Origin: Ignavibacteriota bacterium
GTDB lineage: Bacteria; Bacteroidota; Ignavibacteria; UBA10030; UBA6906
DNA length: 64,000 nt
NCBI GenBank assembly: GCA_963843525.1
Contig: CAWJKM010000003.1
Location: 477,033 to 541,032 of the forward strand
Direction: 5' to 3'
The translations under genes were made by a program, and so were the position numbers. Of this stretch, positions 44,576-53,993 are shown piece by piece. The number at the start of each line of letters is the position of its first letter. Positions within the stretch are counted from its first letter, which is position 1. Below the pieces are notes generated by a model. It saw only the letters and a list, made by a program, of their open reading frames with translations, had not been told where the DNA came from and searched no databases.

Positions 44576-45099
44576 CCAGTTGACAGTAAACAGTTGACAG
44601 TAGACAGTATATCGCAAGTAAGTGAGCACGGACATTCGATTGTGAATACAAATCTCCAGATAGAAAATGATCAAGTTACCCGCCAAACCCGTGATTACCG
44701 TGATTTACTTGTATGGCAGAAGGGGATTCACCTGGTGAAGGACATCTATGCCCTCACGAGGGGGTTTCCAAAGGATGAACTATTTGGACTTTCGAGTCAA
44801 CTACGTCGGGCTGCAGTCTCTGTGCCGTCCAACATTGCTGAAGGTCAGCAGAGAAGATCGGTGAATGATTTCAAAAGATACCTCTCCATCGCCCTTGGCT
44901 CCCTGGCCGAAATCGACACGCAACTGGTTGTCGCGGGTGAGCTCGGATACACATCCGGTGAAGGCCTCCGGCAACTCCAATCAGACATTTGCGATATGCG
45001 AAAGATGCTCTATGGCCTCATTGCGAGTCTTGAGAACCAGTCCTCCGTCAAGCATTAGGCTATCGCCACTGTCTACTGTCAACTGTCGTCTGTAAACTG
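44576..45099 (+). mobile_element. Four-helix-bundle gene cassette bracketed by ~33-bp imperfect inverted repeats built from CAGTNNA heptamers (IVS-like insertion)
   Basis: Left arm 44576-44610 is CCAGTTGACAGTAAACAGTTGACAGTAGACAGTAT. Right arm 45066-45099 is its near-perfect reverse complement. The arms abut the stop of the upstream gene and the start of the downstream gene. Confidence 0.45.
44594..45058 (+). CDS. Four helix bundle protein (23S rRNA intervening-sequence protein family)
   Basis: …YRDLLVWQKGIHLVKDIYALTRGFPKDELFGLSSQLRRAAVSVPSNIAEGQ…SLAEIDTQL… is the family signature. The true start may be an internal GTG at 44642. Confidence 0.7.
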   Translation: MTVDSISQVSEHGHSIVNTNLQIENDQVTRQTRDYRDLLVWQKGIHLVKDIYALTRGFPKDELFGLSSQLRRAAVSVPSNIAEGQQRRSVNDFKRYLSIALGSLAEIDTQLVVAGELGYTSGEGLRQLQSDICDMRKMLYGLIASLENQSSVKH

Positions 45100-47096: not shown

Positions 47097-47118
47097 GCGG
47101 GGATAAGGCAGGGGGGCC

Positions 47119-47345
47119 ATGAGTAAGAAGTAAGAAGAAGGAAGAAGGAAGAAAACAGTGGACAGTGGACAGTGGACAGTGGACAGTGGACAGTGAACAG
47201 TGAACAGTGAACAGTGAACAGTGAATAATGAACAATATACTGTAATTACTTTTTTTAACTGTCATCTGTCTACTGTATTGTCATGACTATCTACCGTTCC
47301 CTTCTTTCTTCCTACATCTTACTTCGTACTTCTTACTCTTCGTAG
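47119..47345. repeat. Large imperfect palindrome with tandem heptamer repeats (CAGTGGA)x5 (CAGTGAA)x4 and an AT-rich centre; flanked by an inverted GAAGAAG-rich arm pair
   Basis: Left arm GAGTAAGAAGTAAGAAGAAGGAAGAAGGAAGAAAA plus heptamer tandem. Centre aatatactgtaattactttttttaac. Right arm ctgtcatctgtctactgtattgtcatgac…ttcttcctacatcttacttcgtacttcttactcttcg, roughly the reverse complement. It lies between the fusion gene and accA. Confidence 0.6.
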
Positions 47346-47369
47346 ATTGACACTACAGTGAGGACTTCG

Positions 47370-48750: not shown

Positions 48751-49664
48751 CCGTGGCCAATGGCGATGAACCATACGGGAGGGCTGAACGGGAGGTTCCG
48801 TTCGACGGCCGGATTCTCGGGGCGATAGAGAATGCCTTGAGGGAAGACATCGGGATGGGGGATATCACCGGTGACTCCACGCTGGATGCAGACGCGCGGA
48901 CGGGCGGTGAATTCCTCGCAAAGGCTGATGGGGTCATTGCCGGCATCGAAGTGGCGGGAGCGGTCTTTCACCTCACCGATGAAGAGGTGGTGTACCGGCC
49001 TGTGGTGAGCGACGGGACGGGCGTGAAGTCCGGGACGGTGATTGCACTGGTTGAAGGGAACGCGCGAGGAATCCTGAGGGCGGAGCGGGTCGCGCTCAAT
49101 TTTCTGCAACGAATGGGCGGGATCGCGACGATGACGCGGACATACGTCGATGCGGTGCGCGGAACGAAAGCGAAAATCACGGATACGCGAAAGACCGCCC
49201 CCGGGCTCCGCGCGATCGACAAACTCGCCGTGCGCATCGGAGGCGGTGTCAATCATCGCTATGGACTCGATGATATGGTCCTGATCAAGGATAATCACAT
49301 CGTCGCCGCGGGCGGGATCACCGCGGCCGTCCATCGCTGCCAGGATTACCTTCGCGAGCACAACATCAAGGTCGGCATTGAAGTGGAAACAACCTCACTG
49401 AAAGAGGTCAGAGAGTCGCTGTCGCTCAAAGGGCTGCAGCGCATCATGCTTGACAATTTTTCTGTTGCCGCAATGCGTGAGGCGGTCCTTCTGATTGGCG
49501 GACGCGTGGAGGTGGAAGCATCGGGCGGTATTACGCTGGAGAGCGTGAAGGAGGTCGCGATGACCGGGGTGGATTTCATTTCCGTCGGCGCCATCACCCA
49601 CTCGGTTCATGCTCTTGACATCTCTCTGGAGTTCACGTCGGGAACCCATGCCCCCCATGCGTGA
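48747..49664 (+). CDS. nadC: Nicotinate-nucleotide diphosphorylase (carboxylating), quinolinate phosphoribosyltransferase
   Basis: …GDITGDST…ERVALNFLQRMGGIATMT…TRKTAPGLRAIDKLAVRIGGGVNHRYGLDDMVLIKDNHI…; the N-terminus may be slightly over-extended. Confidence 0.85.
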   Translation: MTVANGDEPYGRAEREVPFDGRILGAIENALREDIGMGDITGDSTLDADARTGGEFLAKADGVIAGIEVAGAVFHLTDEEVVYRPVVSDGTGVKSGTVIALVEGNARGILRAERVALNFLQRMGGIATMTRTYVDAVRGTKAKITDTRKTAPGLRAIDKLAVRIGGGVNHRYGLDDMVLIKDNHIVAAGGITAAVHRCQDYLREHNIKVGIEVETTSLKEVRESLSLKGLQRIMLDNFSVAAMREAVLLIGGRVEVEASGGITLESVKEVAMTGVDFISVGAITHSVHALDISLEFTSGTHAPHA

Positions 49665-51108
49665 TCAGATACGAAGTCTGGGGGCCGACACTGCGATCTA
49701 CGGCATCAGCACCATCGTCGGCAGGTTCCTCAATTTCCTCCTTGTCTTCTTCTACACCAACGTCCTCCAGCCCGGTGATTACGGCATCGTGGCCTACGTC
49801 TATTCGCTGGTGGCATTCCTCACGATCCTCTACGGATTCGGGATGGAATCGGCGTACTTCAAGTATGCCTCCACAAAGGAACACGGGACGGACCGTGAAA
49901 ACTTCTCGACGCCGCTCCTGGCCCTGCTGGTGAGCTCGGTCGCGCTCTCTTCCCTCATCACCCTGTTTGCGTCGCCCATCGGCGGACTTGTGGCCGTCCC
50001 CGGCGAGCATGTTTCGATTATTTCGTACGCGGCATGGATCCTGTGTCTTGACACCGTGGCGGCCGTCCCGTTCGCGGCTCTCCGTCTCGAACGGCGTCCG
50101 CGCCTTTTCGCGCTCATCAAGACGGTCAACATCGTTGTGAACGTCGGAGCCAATCTTGTCCTCCTCCTGATCTATCATGCAGGCGTGGAAGGAATTTTCC
50201 TCAGCGGATTGATAGCGTCCGGGGCGACTCTTGCACTCCTGCTGCCTGTTATCATCCGTCGGTTTGAACTCCGGTTTACGCCACCCTTATTCAGGACCAT
50301 GCTGCGTTTCGGCCTTCCCTATGTTCCTGCAGGCCTGGCGAGCATGATGATCCAGGTGGTCGACCGACCGATCCTCAGGGCTATGACCGACGATGCCACG
50401 GTAGGCATCTATCAGGCGAACTACCGCCTCGGCATCTTCATGATGCTTGTGGTTTCGATGTACGACTATGCGTGGAGACCGTTTTTTCTCTCCCATGCAA
50501 ATGATCCGGACGCGAAGGCACTCTTTTCGCGTATTCTGACCTATTTCGTCCTTGTCGGCTCATCCATAACGGTCATCCTCTCGCTGTTCATGGATGATTT
50601 CGTGAAGATTCGGGTCTTCGGGCACAGCCTCATCAACCAGGAGTATTGGCCGGGACTGCCAATTGTCCCCGTGGTCCTTCTGGCATATCTCTTCCTTGGG
50701 GTTTACAATAATCTCATAGCCGGCATCTATATTAAGGAGAAGTCCCGATATCTCCCGGCCATTACCTTTGCGGGGGCAGGAGTGAATGTCATTGTCAATA
50801 TTCTTCTCATCCCGCCACTGGGAATGATGGGGGCTGCGATTGCCACCCTGGCAGCCTACGCAGCTATGGCGCTGACATTGTATATTGTAGTGCGGAGATT
50901 CTACCCGGTTCCGTACGAATGGGGCCGGATTGGGGTGATCCTCTCTTGTGGATGCGTCTGCTACATACTGTACAGGCTTGTTCCCCCGGTCTTTACGCCG
51001 ATCCTCTGGAAAACTCTTCTGGTGGCGCTTTTCGGTGGCTCGCTCATTCTTTTTAGGGCGGTTCGTCTCAGTGGATTGAGATCGTTCGGGAAGGCAGGTG
51101 AGATGTAA
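49648..51108 (+). CDS. Polysaccharide biosynthesis protein, Wzx/MOP-family flippase-like (third in window)
   Basis: …GADTAIYGISTIVGRFLNFLLVFFYTNVLQPGDYGIV… and 12-14 TM helices. Start uncertain (49609, 49648 or 49657); it overlaps the end of nadC. The last codons are embedded in the first linker-like unit of the downstream repeat array. Confidence 0.6.
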   Translation: MPPMRDQIRSLGADTAIYGISTIVGRFLNFLLVFFYTNVLQPGDYGIVAYVYSLVAFLTILYGFGMESAYFKYASTKEHGTDRENFSTPLLALLVSSVALSSLITLFASPIGGLVAVPGEHVSIISYAAWILCLDTVAAVPFAALRLERRPRLFALIKTVNIVVNVGANLVLLLIYHAGVEGIFLSGLIASGATLALLLPVIIRRFELRFTPPLFRTMLRFGLPYVPAGLASMMIQVVDRPILRAMTDDATVGIYQANYRLGIFMMLVVSMYDYAWRPFFLSHANDPDAKALFSRILTYFVLVGSSITVILSLFMDDFVKIRVFGHSLINQEYWPGLPIVPVVLLAYLFLGVYNNLIAGIYIKEKSRYLPAITFAGAGVNVIVNILLIPPLGMMGAAIATLAAYAAMALTLYIVVRRFYPVPYEWGRIGVILSCGCVCYILYRLVPPVFTPILWKTLLVALFGGSLILFRAVRLSGLRSFGKAGEM

Positions 51109-51113
51109 GGAAC

Positions 51114-51813
51114 TGTAGGACGGGACGCCAGTCCCGTCCCTGAGAGGGTCGGGTCAGCGACCCGACCTACAGATCGTGGGAGATGTGAGGCATTGTAGGA
51201 CGGGACGCCAGTCCCGTCCCTGAGAGGGTCGGGTCAGCGACCCGACCTACAGATCGTAGGAGATGTGAGCCACTGTAGGACGGGACGCCAGTCCCGTCCC
51301 TGAAAGGGTCGGGTGAGCGACCCGACCTACAGATCGTAGGAGATGGAGGCACTGTAGGACGGGACGCCAGTCCCGTCCCTGAGAGGGTCGGGTCAGCGAC
51401 CCGACCTACAGATCGTAGGAGATGTGAGCCATTGTAGGACGGGACGCCAGTCCCGTCCCTGAGAGGGTCAGGTCAGCGACCCGACCTACAGATCGTAGGA
51501 GATGTGAGCCACTGTAGGACGGGACGCCAGTCCCGTCGCTGAGAGGGTCGGGTCAGCGACCCGACCTACAGATCGTGGGAGATGTGAGGCATTGTAGGAC
51601 GGGACGCCAGTCCCGTCCCTGAGAGGGTCGGGTCAGCGACCCGACCTACAGATCGTAGGAGATGTGAGCCACTGTAGGACGGGACGCCAGTCCCGTCCCT
51701 GAGAGGTCGGGTCAGCGACCCGACCTACAGATCGTAGGAGATGTGAGCCATGTAGGACGGGACGCCAGTCCCGTCGCTGAGAGGGTCGGGTCAGCGACCC
51801 GACCTACAGATCG
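51114..51813. repeat. Tandem array of ~8.8 copies of an 80-bp noncoding repeat, each unit carrying two 9-bp-stem hairpins nested in a 7-bp outer stem
   Basis: Unit is TGTAGGACGGGACgccaGTCCCGTCCctgagaGGGTCGGGTCagcGACCCGACCTACAGatcgtaggagatgtgagccac. Unit starts at 51114, 51194, 51274, 51353, 51433, 51513, 51593, 51673 and 51751, a period of 78-80 bp. All frames carry stops. Only a few point variants occur between units. Confidence 0.9.
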
Positions 51814-51866
51814 AAAATAAATAGTCGGGATTAGGGATTTCACACAATAACAGACGCAGAGGATAG

Positions 51867-52898
51867 ATGTCATCGAAGGAGCAACAAAGCAACAAGGCGC
51901 TATCGTCCGACCAGATTCTGCTTGGCGGCCAGGCGGTGATAGAAGGAGTGATGATGCGGGGGCCGCAGTCGATTGCCACGGCCGTCCGACGGCGAGACGG
52001 TGTCATCGTGGTTCACAAGGAGGCGTTCATTCCTCTCACGCGGCGGTATCGTATCTGGCGATTCCCTATCCTCCGCGGGGTGGCTGGATTTTTTGAAATG
52101 ACCGTGCTCGGAATCCGGATGCTCAATTTCTCGGCAGACGTAGCGATACATGACGGGGAACCGGAGGGGGAGGAGGCGAAGGTCGGAGAGAAACACGGAA
52201 AGGGGGCGGGGGGGTGGAGCCTTGCCCTGGCCGTTCTGGTGTCGCTTACTGTCGCCGTAGGGTTATTCTTTGTAGTCCCCATTCTGCTTGCGACCACGTT
52301 GTTCAGTGTCTCCCAGGATCCCCTCGTGTTCAATTTCGCCGCGGGCTCGATACGCCTCTTAATCTTCCTCAGCTATCTTGCACTGATAGCCAGAATCCCC
52401 GACGTACGACGTCTCTTCATGTATCACGGGGCAGAACATATGACGGTGTTCGCCTTCGAGCGTGAAAAGACTGTCACGGCGGAAGCGGCGTCGCGCCAAT
52501 CGCGGTTTCATCCGCGGTGTGGAACGAGCTTCCTGCTCATAGTCGTGTTTGCATCAATCGTCCTCTTCTCTTTGGTGGATGCCGTGATCCTGTACTCCAC
52601 GGGCAGTATCACCCTTCCGCTGAGACTCCTCTGGCACCTGCTCCTCCTGCCGCTCGTGGCAGGGAGTTCCTATGAGGTGATCCGCTTCTCCGCGAGGCAT
52701 GCAGAGACTTTCCTCGGCCGTCTTATTATGAAGCCCGGACTTCTGCTTCAACGGCTGACAACCAGAGTTCCAACAGAAGACCAGCTCGAGGTGGCGGTGG
52801 CGGCACTGCAAGCCGCCCTTGAACAAACACAGGATCTTCCTGTCGCGCAGGCAGAAGCCGGGAGCGGTGAGAGCTTGCGGGTTGCGGCGCTGGGTTAA
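51867..52898 (+). CDS. DUF1385 domain-containing protein (YqhQ-like)
   Basis: …LGGQAVIEGVMMRGP… is the hallmark of DUF1385, with several internal hydrophobic segments. It sits immediately upstream of prfA, a commonly conserved arrangement. Confidence 0.7.
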   Translation: MSSKEQQSNKALSSDQILLGGQAVIEGVMMRGPQSIATAVRRRDGVIVVHKEAFIPLTRRYRIWRFPILRGVAGFFEMTVLGIRMLNFSADVAIHDGEPEGEEAKVGEKHGKGAGGWSLALAVLVSLTVAVGLFFVVPILLATTLFSVSQDPLVFNFAAGSIRLLIFLSYLALIARIPDVRRLFMYHGAEHMTVFAFEREKTVTAEAASRQSRFHPRCGTSFLLIVVFASIVLFSLVDAVILYSTGSITLPLRLLWHLLLLPLVAGSSYEVIRFSARHAETFLGRLIMKPGLLLQRLTTRVPTEDQLEVAVAALQAALEQTQDLPVAQAEAGSGESLRVAALG

Positions 52899-52928: not shown

Positions 52929-53993
52929 ATGCTGGATAGACTTGAAAAAGTACGGGAGCGGTACGAAGAACTCACTGCACTCCTGAGCGAGCCGGGCGTC
53001 GTGGCGAATCAGGAGCGCTTCCGGAATCTGAGCAGGGAACACAGTCAGCTGACTCCGGTGATCAAGGCATACGATCGATATCGAAAGGCCAAAACCGATC
53101 TCGAGGAGACAAAGGAACTTGCGGAGAACTCTCAGGACCCCGAGCTTCGTCAGATGGCATATGGCGAGCTGGAGGGGGCGAGGGCGCGGATGGCTGAACT
53201 TGAAGAAGAATTGAAAGTTCTTCTGATCCCCAGGGATCCCAACGACAGCAGGAATGTGATCGTGGAAATCCGTGCAGGGACGGGCGGGGATGAAGCCGCG
53301 CTCTTCGGATCGGATCTCTTTAGGATGTACTCGCGCTATGCGGAAAAACGGGGGTGGAAGGTTGAAGTCCTTGATCTCTCCGATACCGGGATGGGAGGGA
53401 TCAAAGAGATTTCCTTTTCGATGATCGGTGAGGACGTCTACGGTTCCATGAAATTCGAAAGCGGTGTCCACCGCGTGCAGCGTGTTCCGGAAACGGAGGC
53501 GCAAGGCCGCGTGCATACGTCTGCCGCCACCGTCGCTGTTCTCCCGGAGGTGGAGCAGGTGGAAGTGGAGATCAATCCCGCCGATCTCATGATCGACACC
53601 TTTCGTTCGGGAGGGAAGGGCGGACAGAACGTCAACAAAGTTGAGACCGCGGTCCGGATCACGCACAAACCCTCGGGGATTGTGGTCGCCTGCCGGCAGG
53701 AGCGTTCGCAGTTCCAGAACAGGGAGCGCGCGATGAAGATGTTGCGGGCGAAGCTCTACGAATCAAAGATTGAAGCGCAAACCGGTGATGTTGCAGCACA
53801 GCGCAAGCAAATGGTGAAGAGCGGAGACAGGAGCGACAAGATCCGGACATACAATTTTCCACAAAACCGGGTGACCGATCATCGGATCGGAGTCACGCTC
53901 TACAATCTCTCTGAAATCATCGACGGTCACCTCGACGATCTTGTTGAGCAGCTCAAGATCGCTGACCGTGCGGAGAAGCTGCGGGGGGGCTGA
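52929..53993 (+). CDS. prfA: Peptide chain release factor 1
   Basis: …[12 protein letters not shown]…, a PET-like tripeptide region and …[20 protein letters not shown]… (GGQ motif); 354 aa. Confidence 0.92.

Follow-up and report, generated by a model that had tools for sequence, protein, structure and literature searches.

To our knowledge, nearly all work on the REP/REPIN-RAYT system concerns Proteobacteria. REPs (repetitive extragenic palindromes) are short (20-40 bp), GC-rich palindromes that fold into a stem-loop. REPs of the type described here are recognized as single-stranded DNA hairpins and are mobilized in trans by a single-copy HUH/Y1 transposase, the RAYT (REP-associated tyrosine transposase), and REP-RAYT systems are generally considered to be inherited vertically. 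In BIME-2 elements, REP and iREP copies follow each other in tandem, in a number that differs between strains, and TnpA-REP, which requires the GTAG tetranucleotide, could assemble tandem BIMEs by strand transfer; E. coli strains that lost tnpA-REP retain their REPs (PMC3333891). The conserved tetranucleotide at the 5' foot of a REP is either GTAG or CGTC (PMC3333891, PMC3733652). One well-described BIME-2 cluster is REP325 of E. coli, which comprises 12 palindromic units in the arrangement 6 x [Z2+Y] and whose 12 hairpins between yjdM and yjdN act as a partial terminator and as a stabilizer of the upstream mRNA (bioRxiv 10.64898/2026.03.23.713779). Tandem REPIN clusters are also known from Pseudomonas fluorescens SBW25, where they are repeated "including the flanking sequences" (Bertels and Rainey, 2011; PMC3116915). 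A survey from 2013 reported GTAG-tagged REPs in Proteobacteria, Cyanobacteria, Chloroflexi and PVC, and solely CGTC-tagged ones in Bacteroidetes/Chlorobi (Di Nocera et al., 2013; PMC3733652).

The window, i.e. the whole stretch of DNA that was analyzed here, is 64 kb long and has a GC content of 55%. Using TRF, we identified a single tandem array in this one assembly (714 bp, period 80 bp, 9.0 copies, 95% matches, 0% indels, score 1295), which very probably represents nine REP doublets (REPINs) clustered in tandem in a BIME-like manner. A sequence-only reading had already described about nine 80-bp repeats at this site, and the repeats were confirmed, but the span given for them, 51085-51815, was slightly too wide on the left. 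The array and its neighbors are as follows.

51100-51813, no strand assigned: whole array, defined by TRF, pattern searches and unit alignment
49609-51108, + strand: upstream gene, full-length flippase of the Polysacc_synt family (Pfam; C-terminal alignment with orthologues)
51814-51866, + strand: unique spacer of 53 bp from the array end to the DUF1385 start codon
51867-52898, + strand: DUF1385 gene (Pfam)
52929-53993, + strand: prfA (Pfam)

The array is extragenic, with the flippase stop on one side and the DUF1385 start on the other, and has stops in every frame. The linker of unit 1 contains the flippase stop codon (TAA, 51106-51108); 4 nt past this stop the outer stem of the first doublet begins, and 9 nt past it the stem of hairpin A. 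A coding repeat was considered and rejected, since all six frames of 51109-51866 carry stops, as had been noticed before, and a period of 80 bp is not divisible by 3. The flippase had also been counted as the third of its kind, and here tblastn gives just one distant paralogue, at about 33.4-34.0 kb.

Each of the nine units consists of a linker, a GTAG-tagged REP-A read on the + strand, a spacer of 7 nt and a REP-B that is read on the - strand and ends in CTAC, and pattern searches together with the unit alignment give 18 REP palindromes in total. The linker joining the units is about 24 nt long. Hairpin A (GGACGGGAC-GCCA-GTCCCGTCC) and hairpin B (GGGTCGGGTC-AGC-GACCCGACC) each occur nine times in the 64-kb window, always within the array, and neither is found in 100 shuffles of the window. 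Both REPs are GC-rich with 9-bp stems and loops of 3-4 nt, with a length of 22 nt for REP-A and 21-22 nt for REP-B, and in the consensus unit the stems are perfect palindromes without any mismatch. The individual units, with REP-A on the + strand and REP-B on the - strand, are listed below.

51100-51179: unit 1, 80 bp; REP-A 51118-51139, REP-B 51146-51167; linker GAGATGTAAGGAA, the most divergent of the nine
51180-51259: unit 2, 80 bp; REP-A 51198-51219, REP-B 51226-51247; identical to unit 7
51260-51339: unit 3, 80 bp; REP-A 51278-51299, REP-B 51306-51327 with C>G in the loop
51340-51418: unit 4, 79 bp; REP-A 51357-51378, REP-B 51385-51406; 1-nt deletion in the linker
51419-51498: unit 5, 80 bp; REP-A 51437-51458, REP-B 51465-51486 with G>A in the stem
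51499-51578: unit 6, 80 bp; REP-A 51517-51538 with C>G that breaks the closing pair, REP-B 51545-51566
51579-51658: unit 7, 80 bp; REP-A 51597-51618, REP-B 51625-51646; identical to unit 2
51659-51737: unit 8, 79 bp; REP-A 51677-51698, REP-B 51704-51725; 1-nt deletion in the G run of the A-B spacer
51738-51813: unit 9, 76 bp; REP-A 51755-51776 with the C>G of unit 6, REP-B 51783-51804; full doublet without the final 4 nt of the linker

A comparison of the units revealed a higher-order pattern, in which units 1-2 recur as units 6-7. The linkers fall into about five variants (GGAAC, GGCATT in two copies, CCAC in three, CCATT, and two further copies with 1-nt deletions), and the two strictly alternating variants proposed earlier were not found. 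One base is missing in each of units 4, 8 and 9, and part of the unit-to-unit variation may be sequencing error, because the base loss in unit 8 falls in a G run.

REP-A and REP-B are inverted copies of one another, each with a GTAG foot (CTGTAGGACGGGAC for the + strand, CTGTAGGTCGGGTC for the - strand), and the GTAG tag is present at the 5' foot of each REP in nine of nine units (CTGTAGG-ACGGGAC on the + strand, CTGTAGG-TCGGGTC on the - strand). As each copy is tagged at its 5' side on its own strand, the unit is a head-to-head REP doublet of the REPIN/BIME type. The two REPs of a doublet form a heterodimer, their stems being distinguished by compensatory A/T swaps. The two 9-bp-stem hairpins of the sequence-only reading were recovered, whereas its enclosing 7-bp stem (CTGTAGG/CCTACAG) shares the inner GG/CC with the hairpin stems, so just five extra pairs are added. 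Folding of the unit as RNA gave z-scores against shuffles of -4.8 for the + strand and -3.5 for the - strand, and folding as DNA gave -6.3 and -5.5. The minimum-free-energy fold of the - strand is one long hairpin, and the unit HMM also matches the - strand of the array. The sequence after each hairpin is either CTGAGAG or TACAGATCG. Intrinsic (Rho-independent) terminators were considered as well and rejected, since no hairpin is followed by a T-run and a scan of 51100-51813 gave no terminator-like site.

The array shares with E. coli BIME-2 elements such as REP325 two REP variants that alternate in orientation, the alternation of short and longer linkers, the GTAG foot and the near-identity of the tandem copies (PMC3333891), and with REP325 in addition the position in a 3' UTR between co-oriented operon genes (bioRxiv 10.64898/2026.03.23.713779). 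The hosts differ (Bacteroidota versus Enterobacteriaceae), and the RNA effects were measured for REP325, whereas for the array we infer them. The REPs themselves are unrelated in sequence, with perfect 9-bp stems and 21-22 nt in the array and imperfect stems and 30-40 nt in E. coli. TnpA-REP of E. coli needs a stem mismatch, which the array stems lack, a requirement documented for the E. coli enzyme only (PMC3333891). The perfect stems therefore bear on the question whether the element works like the E. coli system, and not on REP membership in general. Like the tandem REPINs of P. fluorescens SBW25, the array consists of nearly identical head-to-tail repeats of flank, REPIN and flank, and in both cases the inverted REP doublet is able to form one long hairpin; furthermore, the REPs of SBW25 flank single-copy RAYT genes, and REPs of the array type do likewise in other genomes (PMC3116915). 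In contrast, the REPINs of SBW25 are mostly single and dispersed in hundreds of copies, and the 64-kb window contains no dispersed copy. With nine doublets, i.e. 18 palindromes, the array is an extreme tandem cluster compared with four REPINs plus one REP in the largest cluster of SBW25 and a maximum of 12 palindromic units in E. coli. GTAG stem-loops, head-to-head heterodimers and clusters of dimers reiterated together with flanking DNA are also typical of the GTAG-tagged REP superfamily (Di Nocera et al., 2013; PMC3733652). Over a short stretch, the foot CTGTAGGACGGG looks similar to the 35-bp REP of Pseudomonas putida when the consensus of the latter (...CCCGCtCCtaCaggg; PMC11585281) is read as its reverse complement.

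Additional evidence for a REP origin comes from other genomes. Hairpins of the A/B family flank RAYT-like genes at eight independent loci (L002, L004, L012, L013, L014, L015, L020 and L021) from other Bacteroidota/Ignavibacteria-like MAGs and metagenomes, and several of these hairpins are identical to array copies including the loops, at L004 both A and B. At L016 and L017, the RAYTs are more distant and the GTAG palindrome beside them is a different one, which indicates that the palindrome changes with the transposase. All 18 members of the RAYT family match NCBIfam REP_Tyr_transpos (best E = 2.8e-25) and 13 of them match Pfam Y1_Tnp, the HUH histidines and the catalytic tyrosine are invariant, and the sole PDB match of the family is E. 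coli TnpA-REP (4ER8, profile E = 2.4e-8). Points against the REP reading are that two transposase proteins, the ORF at L002 (65 bits) and P0121 (64.9 bits), stay under the NCBIfam equivalog cut-off of 80 bits and have no Pfam match, and the closest RAYT (L004) is split by a frameshift. The tag combined with the same stem-loop varies, with GTAG in the window and at L001, L003, L004, L020 and L021 and CGTC/CGTT at L002, L012 and L014. Scans for hairpin A gave four loci in genomes and four in metagenomes, and the exact hairpin is therefore rare. Dispersed copies that are not associated with a RAYT were found in two other genomes (L001 and L003). The sequence-only reading had not recognized the unit as a known family and had listed a REP/BIME-like element as one of four options; this option is supported by the GTAG-tagged hairpins beside RAYT genes, which allow a positive assignment. 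Effects of the sRNA or protein-binding type are, in E. coli, known side effects of REP clusters and not alternatives to them.

Within the window, tblastn detected no RAYT gene, and pattern searches and nhmmer detected no further copy of hairpin A or B outside the array, not even a decayed one. A check for dispersal had been proposed before, and its outcome is twofold, with no second copy in the 64-kb window and with hairpins present in other genomes. At an E. coli-like density several REP loci would be expected per 64 kb, and the fact that the array stands alone counts against the REP reading. A cognate RAYT missing from the genome would not be decisive, as E. coli strains without tnpA-REP still keep their REPs. 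The RAYT P0167 from a "Bacteroidota bacterium" MAG was rejected as the window's own RAYT, because its flanking palindrome is different and its GC content is 51% versus 55%, and it therefore comes from another organism. Nor is there support for a plasmid or phage origin; blastn gave no match in PLSDB or INPHARED, and the exact hairpins are missing from IMG/VR. Short tandem REP arrays directly flank the RAYT at L021 (82 bp x 1.9), L002 (69 bp x 2.7) and L012 (187 bp x 1.8), which resembles REPtrons, i.e. RAYT genes flanked by BIME arrays. In contrast, no RAYT adjoins the nine-unit array, and together with the tight junction in relatives this indicates that it is neither a REPtron nor a recognizable relic of one.

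Across the loci, four of the nine stem pairs show double-sided changes, amounting to 22 cells compared with 9.1 +/- 1.7 in shuffles (0/500). The hairpin population is bimodal, and the covariation is therefore not merely a product of the selection filter. Judged by these alignments, the hairpin structure is what is conserved, and the stem changes are compensatory across loci. The variation leads from one Watson-Crick pair to another, with a G-U wobble in only 1 of 162 stem cells, and this near-absence of G-U is more in line with selection at the level of DNA, or of both strands, than with selection on RNA only.

Three syntenic relatives (L006, L007 and L008) have flippase-DUF1385 spacers of 39, 16 and 16 bp, none of which contains the hairpins. 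From this comparison, the array is a lineage-specific insertion that was subsequently amplified. Every linker keeps GAG-ATG-TGA, which mirrors the terminal GAG-ATG-TAA of the flippase, and thus the duplicated unit probably took in flanking DNA. The earlier proposal that the array had grown from the 3' end of the flippase gene holds in this limited sense; that it had replaced this end does not, since the flippase C-terminus aligns to its end with the orthologues and the lengths agree within 0-3 residues. As cause of the first duplication, a microhomology at the ends of the array was considered, with AGATCG present at 51079 and again behind each doublet, but it was discarded, as the registers mismatch. 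Based on the homology to the RAYT-flanking copies, a doublet of this REP family was probably inserted just past the flippase stop in a former operon spacer of 16-39 bp. The pattern of the units shows that the doublet was then amplified locally together with about 13 nt of the left flank, including the flippase GAG-ATG-stop, and about 7 nt of the right flank, single units being duplicated first and multi-unit blocks later. Replication slippage, unequal exchange or RAYT-mediated strand transfer may have been the mechanism.

The location also suggests some local effects. In analogy to REP325 of E. coli, 18 stable hairpins in the transcript would block the 3'-5' decay of the upstream flippase mRNA and would partly attenuate read-through into DUF1385-prfA, and the first hairpin, 4-9 nt past the stop, may disturb termination of flippase translation. 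No sigma-70-like promoter was found on the + strand of the 51814-51866 spacer. prfA is essential in bacteria where this was tested, and the presence of this gene downstream without a recognizable promoter of its own argues against strong termination at the array. Being located inside a probable operon just upstream of prfA, the array is a natural test case for the attenuation of read-through by REPs. We regard the element as most likely a by-product, selfish or neutral, whose side effects are regulatory, and not as a dedicated RNA gene.

A more far-reaching version of the REP reading would regard the array as an orphan cluster of 18 hairpins that the host has retained in a genome otherwise without the REP family or a RAYT, either for uncoupling DUF1385-prfA from the upstream polysaccharide genes or for a ladder of double-hairpin RNAs, and its family as the first GTAG-type REP-RAYT system described in Bacteroidota, spread horizontally between phyla. 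We consider this combination as a whole doubtful. The hairpin is in fact identical in MAGs assigned to different phyla (Planctomycetaceae at L001 versus Bacteroidota), and this identity would, if the version is true, imply horizontal spread of REP-RAYT.

It appears unlikely that the array is a structured-RNA locus selected by the host, whose nine units are transcribed and processed to ~80-nt RNAs with two hairpins, comparable to the naRNAs that were formerly proposed for REP325, or act as an operon insulator, with the REP origin being just history. The high stability of the unit as RNA and the position on the sense strand of a probable operon upstream of prfA would fit, and E. coli REP325 indeed gives a ladder of hairpin RNAs, but the proposed naRNA function was not reproduced (bioRxiv 10.64898/2026.03.23.713779). 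There is also a likeness to double-hairpin sRNAs, which remains sub-threshold in Rfam (CC3552 with 35.1 bits versus a gathering score of 50). Folding and an Rfam comparison had been suggested by the sequence-only reading; the unit folds far better than shuffles, yet no Rfam family reaches its gathering threshold anywhere in the window. A permissive scan gave just generic sub-threshold matches to double hairpins and miRNA precursors, which we took as chance. Furthermore, the array is missing from three of three syntenic relatives and thus not conserved, a promoter was not found, and the scarcity of G-U pairs in the stems speaks against such a locus as well.

An ordinary minisatellite, generated by replication slippage of a chance palindrome and with no tie to REPs or RAYTs, is very unlikely. 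Confinement of the unit to one place in 64 kb, block duplications and more divergent edge units are typical of tandem-array dynamics, but GTAG tags and compensatory stem variation are not expected of a chance palindrome, and the identical 22-nt and 21-nt hairpins, loops included, in unrelated contigs and beside RAYT genes at eight loci largely refute this explanation. Highly improbable is also an assembly artefact, in which a single REP doublet or a short array was inflated by the assembler. The source is a MAG, the single-base deletions in three units, one of them in a G run, suggest noisy reads, and an independent short-read assembly (L005, Logan SRR28023524) breaks at the array, its contig starting within the last unit. 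However, such a break is expected of a real repeat longer than the k-mer, the right-hand junction is matched exactly in L005, and the unit-specific substitutions follow a consistent pattern (units 1-2 match units 6-7, and units 6 and 9 have a variant in common) that would not arise from collapse or expansion during assembly. A CRISPR or CRISPR-like array, which palindromic repeats at regular spacing might suggest, can practically be dismissed, in agreement with the sequence-only reading, because unique spacers are missing (the 7-nt and ~24-nt linkers recur almost unchanged from unit to unit) and successive repeats point in opposite directions.

Taken as a BIME-like cluster of REP doublets, the array is an unusually long but otherwise ordinary example of REP/REPIN/BIME elements in a little-studied Bacteroidota lineage, and it leaves the current understanding of REPs unchanged. 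With this array, the known range of the REP/REPIN-RAYT system comes to include an uncultured Bacteroidota/Ignavibacteria-like lineage, and GTAG-tagged REPs, unreported for Bacteroidota in the 2013 survey (PMC3733652), are added for this phylum. The exact flippase protein has no record elsewhere, which is consistent with other assemblies being truncated at the array. Arrays of this type break short-read MAG assemblies, as seen for L005, and would be suitable as variable-number markers.

Screening of the whole window with Tandem Repeats Finder (TRF) revealed a single strong array at 51100-51813 with a period of 80, 9.0 copies, 95% matches and a score of 1295, and by the TRF count it contains no indels. 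Together with inspection of the sequence from 50900 to 52000, this confirms the tandem array of about 80-bp units claimed by the sequence-only reading, with the true start at 51100 instead of 51085. Stops, claimed for every frame, are indeed present in all six frames of 51109-51866, and in place of two alternating linker variants the unit alignment revealed about five. A 1-nt deletion, for which a read error could account, distinguishes three units. The count of nine units comes from a single assembly; an independent short-read assembly of the locus (L005, Logan SRR28023524) breaks off inside the last unit and confirms the right-hand junction but not the count. The genes at the locus are:

49609-51108, + strand, Polysacc_synt flippase
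51867-52898, + strand, DUF1385
52929-53993, + strand, prfA

Each unit reads GAGATGTGAGSCA / CTGTAGG-ACGGGAC-GCCA-GTCCCGTCC / CTGAGAG / GGTCGGGTC-AGC-GACCCGACC-TACAG / ATCGTRG and contains hairpin A (GGACGGGAC-GCCA-GTCCCGTCC) and hairpin B (GGGTCGGGTC-AGC-GACCCGACC). A pattern search of the 64 kb with up to 3 mismatches found 9 occurrences of each, all inside the array, and 100 shuffles of the window yielded no match to either. On the - strand, hairpin B has the sequence CTGTAGG-TCGGGTC-GCT-GACCCGACC; it differs from A by two stem positions swapped from A/T to T/A, and GTAG is the 5' foot of both, which indicates that A and B are inverted copies of each other. In reverse orientation, too, the array is matched by an HMM of the units. 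The consensus unit folds as RNA with -40.6 kcal/mol (z = -4.8) on the + strand, in line with the double-hairpin described from the sequence, and with -39.9 kcal/mol (z = -3.5) on the reverse strand; as DNA, the 66-nt core reaches z = -6.3 and -5.5. The minimum-free-energy fold of the doublet consists of two small hairpins closed by CTGTA/TACAG on the + strand and of one long imperfect hairpin on the - strand. The proposed outer stem contributes 5 pairs and not 7. Such a doublet architecture is known from head-to-head heterodimers of repetitive extragenic palindromes (REPs), REPINs and BIMEs (PMC3733652, PMC3116915, PMC3333891).

Size, palindrome, extragenic position, GTAG foot and inverted doublet all agree with the defining features of REPs, and the association with a REP-associated tyrosine transposase (RAYT), including co-variation, was found in related genomes. 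Like clusters of the BIME-2 type, it consists of near-identical copies in tandem, with REPs in alternating orientation and linkers that also alternate. The array is most probably a REP doublet cluster of this type, as the REP/BIME-like option of the sequence-only reading had it, and thus belongs to a known class of repeat. It is a long example with its nine doublets, since SBW25 reaches four REPINs (PMC3116915) and E. coli no more than 12 units (bioRxiv 10.64898/2026.03.23.713779). Its stems are perfect, whereas E. coli REPs carry a stem mismatch needed by TnpA-REP (PMC3333891). Besides the length, the GTAG REP in a Bacteroidetes host, not reported by PMC3733652, and a stem-loop with GTAG or CGTC/CGTT feet depending on the lineage deserve attention. 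The defining features of a CRISPR array are absent, as already stated from the sequence; the array also belongs to no Rfam family, and with no T-run after any of its hairpins it is not an intrinsic terminator.

An exact scan with hairpin A of one genome per GTDB species revealed 4 loci, and JGI metagenomes contributed 4 more matches, 3 of which represent the L001 locus; a viral scan gave no match. In other genomes (a search of related ones had been suggested together with the sequence-only reading), the hairpins occur both dispersed and beside RAYTs. Dispersed copies away from a RAYT are found in L001 and in L003, where a doublet lies just past the stop codon of a gene with a second GTAG hairpin 2.6 kb off. 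In L002, L012 and L004, 25-60 bp separate a hairpin from the beginning of an ORF whose product shows the motifs YxRxLPH...FVTFRL, HVH and Y..NP, and a hairpin scan of the contigs placed A- and/or B-type palindromes beside this ORF or its homologue in L002, L004, L012, L013, L014, L015, L020 and L021. The L002 ORF has no match in Pfam and matches the NCBIfam model NF047646 'REP-associated tyrosine transposase' with E = 4.8e-18, although its score of 65.5 bits does not reach the equivalog cut-off of 80 bits. All 18 aligned family members match NF047646 (best E = 2.8e-25) and 13 of them Pfam Y1_Tnp. The sole PDB sequence match is E. coli TnpA-REP 4ER8 (E = 0.0044 with a single sequence, 2.4e-8 with a profile), in an alignment covering the HUH and catalytic-Tyr motifs, and every member of the RAYT alignment has H99, H101 and Y181. 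The protein family beside the hairpins is RAYT.

In L004, A and B equal the window copies including the loops, and A also carries the GTAG tag. Two more distant homologues, in L016 and L017 (~50% identity), are flanked by another GTAG palindrome, GTAGAGCGA...TCGCTCTAC, which means that the palindrome changes with the protein clade. This second REP family (GTAGAGCGA-N-TCGCTCTAC, 12-bp stem) lies directly upstream of the distant RAYTs (L016:9962-9988, L017:9962-9988) in an Ignavibacteriae and a Bacteroidota MAG, and a related palindrome is also found inside both RAYT coding regions. Beside one RAYT clade (L002:757-1816, L012:714-1250, L014:4102-5184), the 5' feet of the A/B stem-loops are CGTC/CGTT; beside another (L004, L020, L021) they are GTAG, as in the window. 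Hence, both 'superfamily' tags of Di Nocera et al. occur on a single stem-loop family. The genes STAS, SSF, Xer-type integrase, RAYT and DUF1611 form a common context in L002, L013, L014 and L015; on these four independent contigs the RAYT occupies a slot between the Xer-type tyrosine recombinase and DUF1611 (L013:8858-11216, L014:2993-5810, L015:5486-9268). This is consistent with a domesticated, vertically inherited transposase and fits the single-copy, vertical inheritance described for RAYTs (PMC3333891). The L004 RAYT (L004:1773-2464), whose flanking REPs are exactly those of the window, is split by a frameshift into two overlapping ORFs, for which either pseudogene decay or a homopolymer error in long reads could account. 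At L001:3569-3662, in a MAG labelled Planctomycetaceae, hairpin A with identical loop lies 50 bp from a hybrid-stem hairpin (GGACGGGTC...GACCCGTCC), and the same locus is present in three JGI metagenomes (L009, L010, L011). A 22-nt REP identical across phyla suggests that the REP-RAYT system moved horizontally or that the contig was binned wrongly.

In an alignment of the 18 distinct hairpin variants that the loci provide, 95.7% of the cells are paired and 4/9 stem pairs show two-sided changes (pair 1: G-C/C-G/U-A; pair 3: A-U/U-A/G-C; pair 7: G-C/U-A; pair 8: A-U/U-A). Doubly changed cells number 22, compared to 9.1 +/- 1.7 in shuffles (0/500), and slid controls collapse. As the hairpins had been chosen by pairing, we checked for bias by anchoring on the left arm alone; the pair counts were bimodal, with a background mode of 3-4 and a sharp peak at 8-9. 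Only one cell is a wobble, from which we tentatively infer a constraint on DNA or both strands, that is RAYT recognition, and not on RNA alone.

The syntenic relatives L006-L008 have the same gene order (accA, thioesterase, nadC, flippase, DUF1385, prfA), with DUF1385 protein identities of 71%, 65% and 64%. Their flippase-DUF1385 gaps measure 39, 16 and 16 bp compared to 758 bp in the window, and neither regex nor nhmmer found an A/B hairpin there. The array is therefore a lineage-specific insertion, and the junction it entered was tight and probably co-transcribed. Since the flippase lacks no C-terminal residues in comparison with its orthologues, nothing was replaced, contrary to the earlier proposal that the array had replaced or grown from the 3' end of the gene. 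Growth from this end holds in a limited sense: the flippase stop TAA (51106-51108) lies inside the unit 1 linker, and all later linkers keep GAG-ATG-TGA. In the simplest reading, the duplicated segment would comprise the last codons of the gene, the doublet and a short stretch of right flank, and tandem REPIN clusters are likewise described as repeating together with their flanks (PMC3116915); alternatively, the element may have come with these flanks and now provide the flippase stop codon. Units 2 and 7 are identical, the GTGG linker end is common to units 1 and 6, a C>G change breaking the closing pair of hairpin A recurs in units 6 and 9, and the edge units are most divergent, which argues for growth by multi-unit duplications. 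These would occur by unequal exchange or slippage, or by TnpA-REP strand transfer, as proposed for the assembly of tandem BIMEs (PMC3333891). The 64-kb window contains neither a RAYT nor further copies of the element.

By analogy to E. coli, the 18 hairpins would shield the 3' end of the polysaccharide-gene transcript and lower read-through into DUF1385-prfA. prfA is known to be essential and no sigma-70-like promoter was recognised before DUF1385 by a tool that does not cover Bacteroidota-type promoters, which argues that any attenuation is partial. The outer stem of the first doublet lies 4 nt and the hairpin A stem 9 nt past the flippase stop; the distance rule for stalling between REP and stop codon would be ~15 nt. 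In E. coli, REPs near stop codons are reported to stall ribosomes during termination (cited in PMC12306157). The nearest analogue is E. coli REP325, 12 hairpins in six Z2+Y pairs between the co-oriented yjdM and yjdN, which stabilises the upstream mRNA, attenuates downstream transcription in a partly Rho-dependent manner and gives rise to truncated hairpin transcripts that form a ladder (bioRxiv 10.64898/2026.03.23.713779).

Further repeats are located upstream. The spacer between a GT2 glycosyltransferase gene and accA (47097-47357) contains 11.6 copies of an (A/G)ACAGTG heptamer at 47154-47234. To the left of this array lies a purine-rich run (GAAGTAAGAAG...), to the right the near-complementary CTTCTTACTCTTC. 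L006-L008 lack the array, which could be a slippage-prone promoter-region repeat. In the polysaccharide locus of these relatives, a 23S_rRNA_IVP/bAvd four-helix-bundle gene lies upstream of the GT2 gene (L006:3683-4021, L007:3649-4065, L008:3614-4030). TRF also detected a 14-bp tandem repeat (CAGTTGACAGTAAA, 2.3 copies) at 44577-44608, 2.5 kb upstream of the heptamer array; both have a CAGT core.
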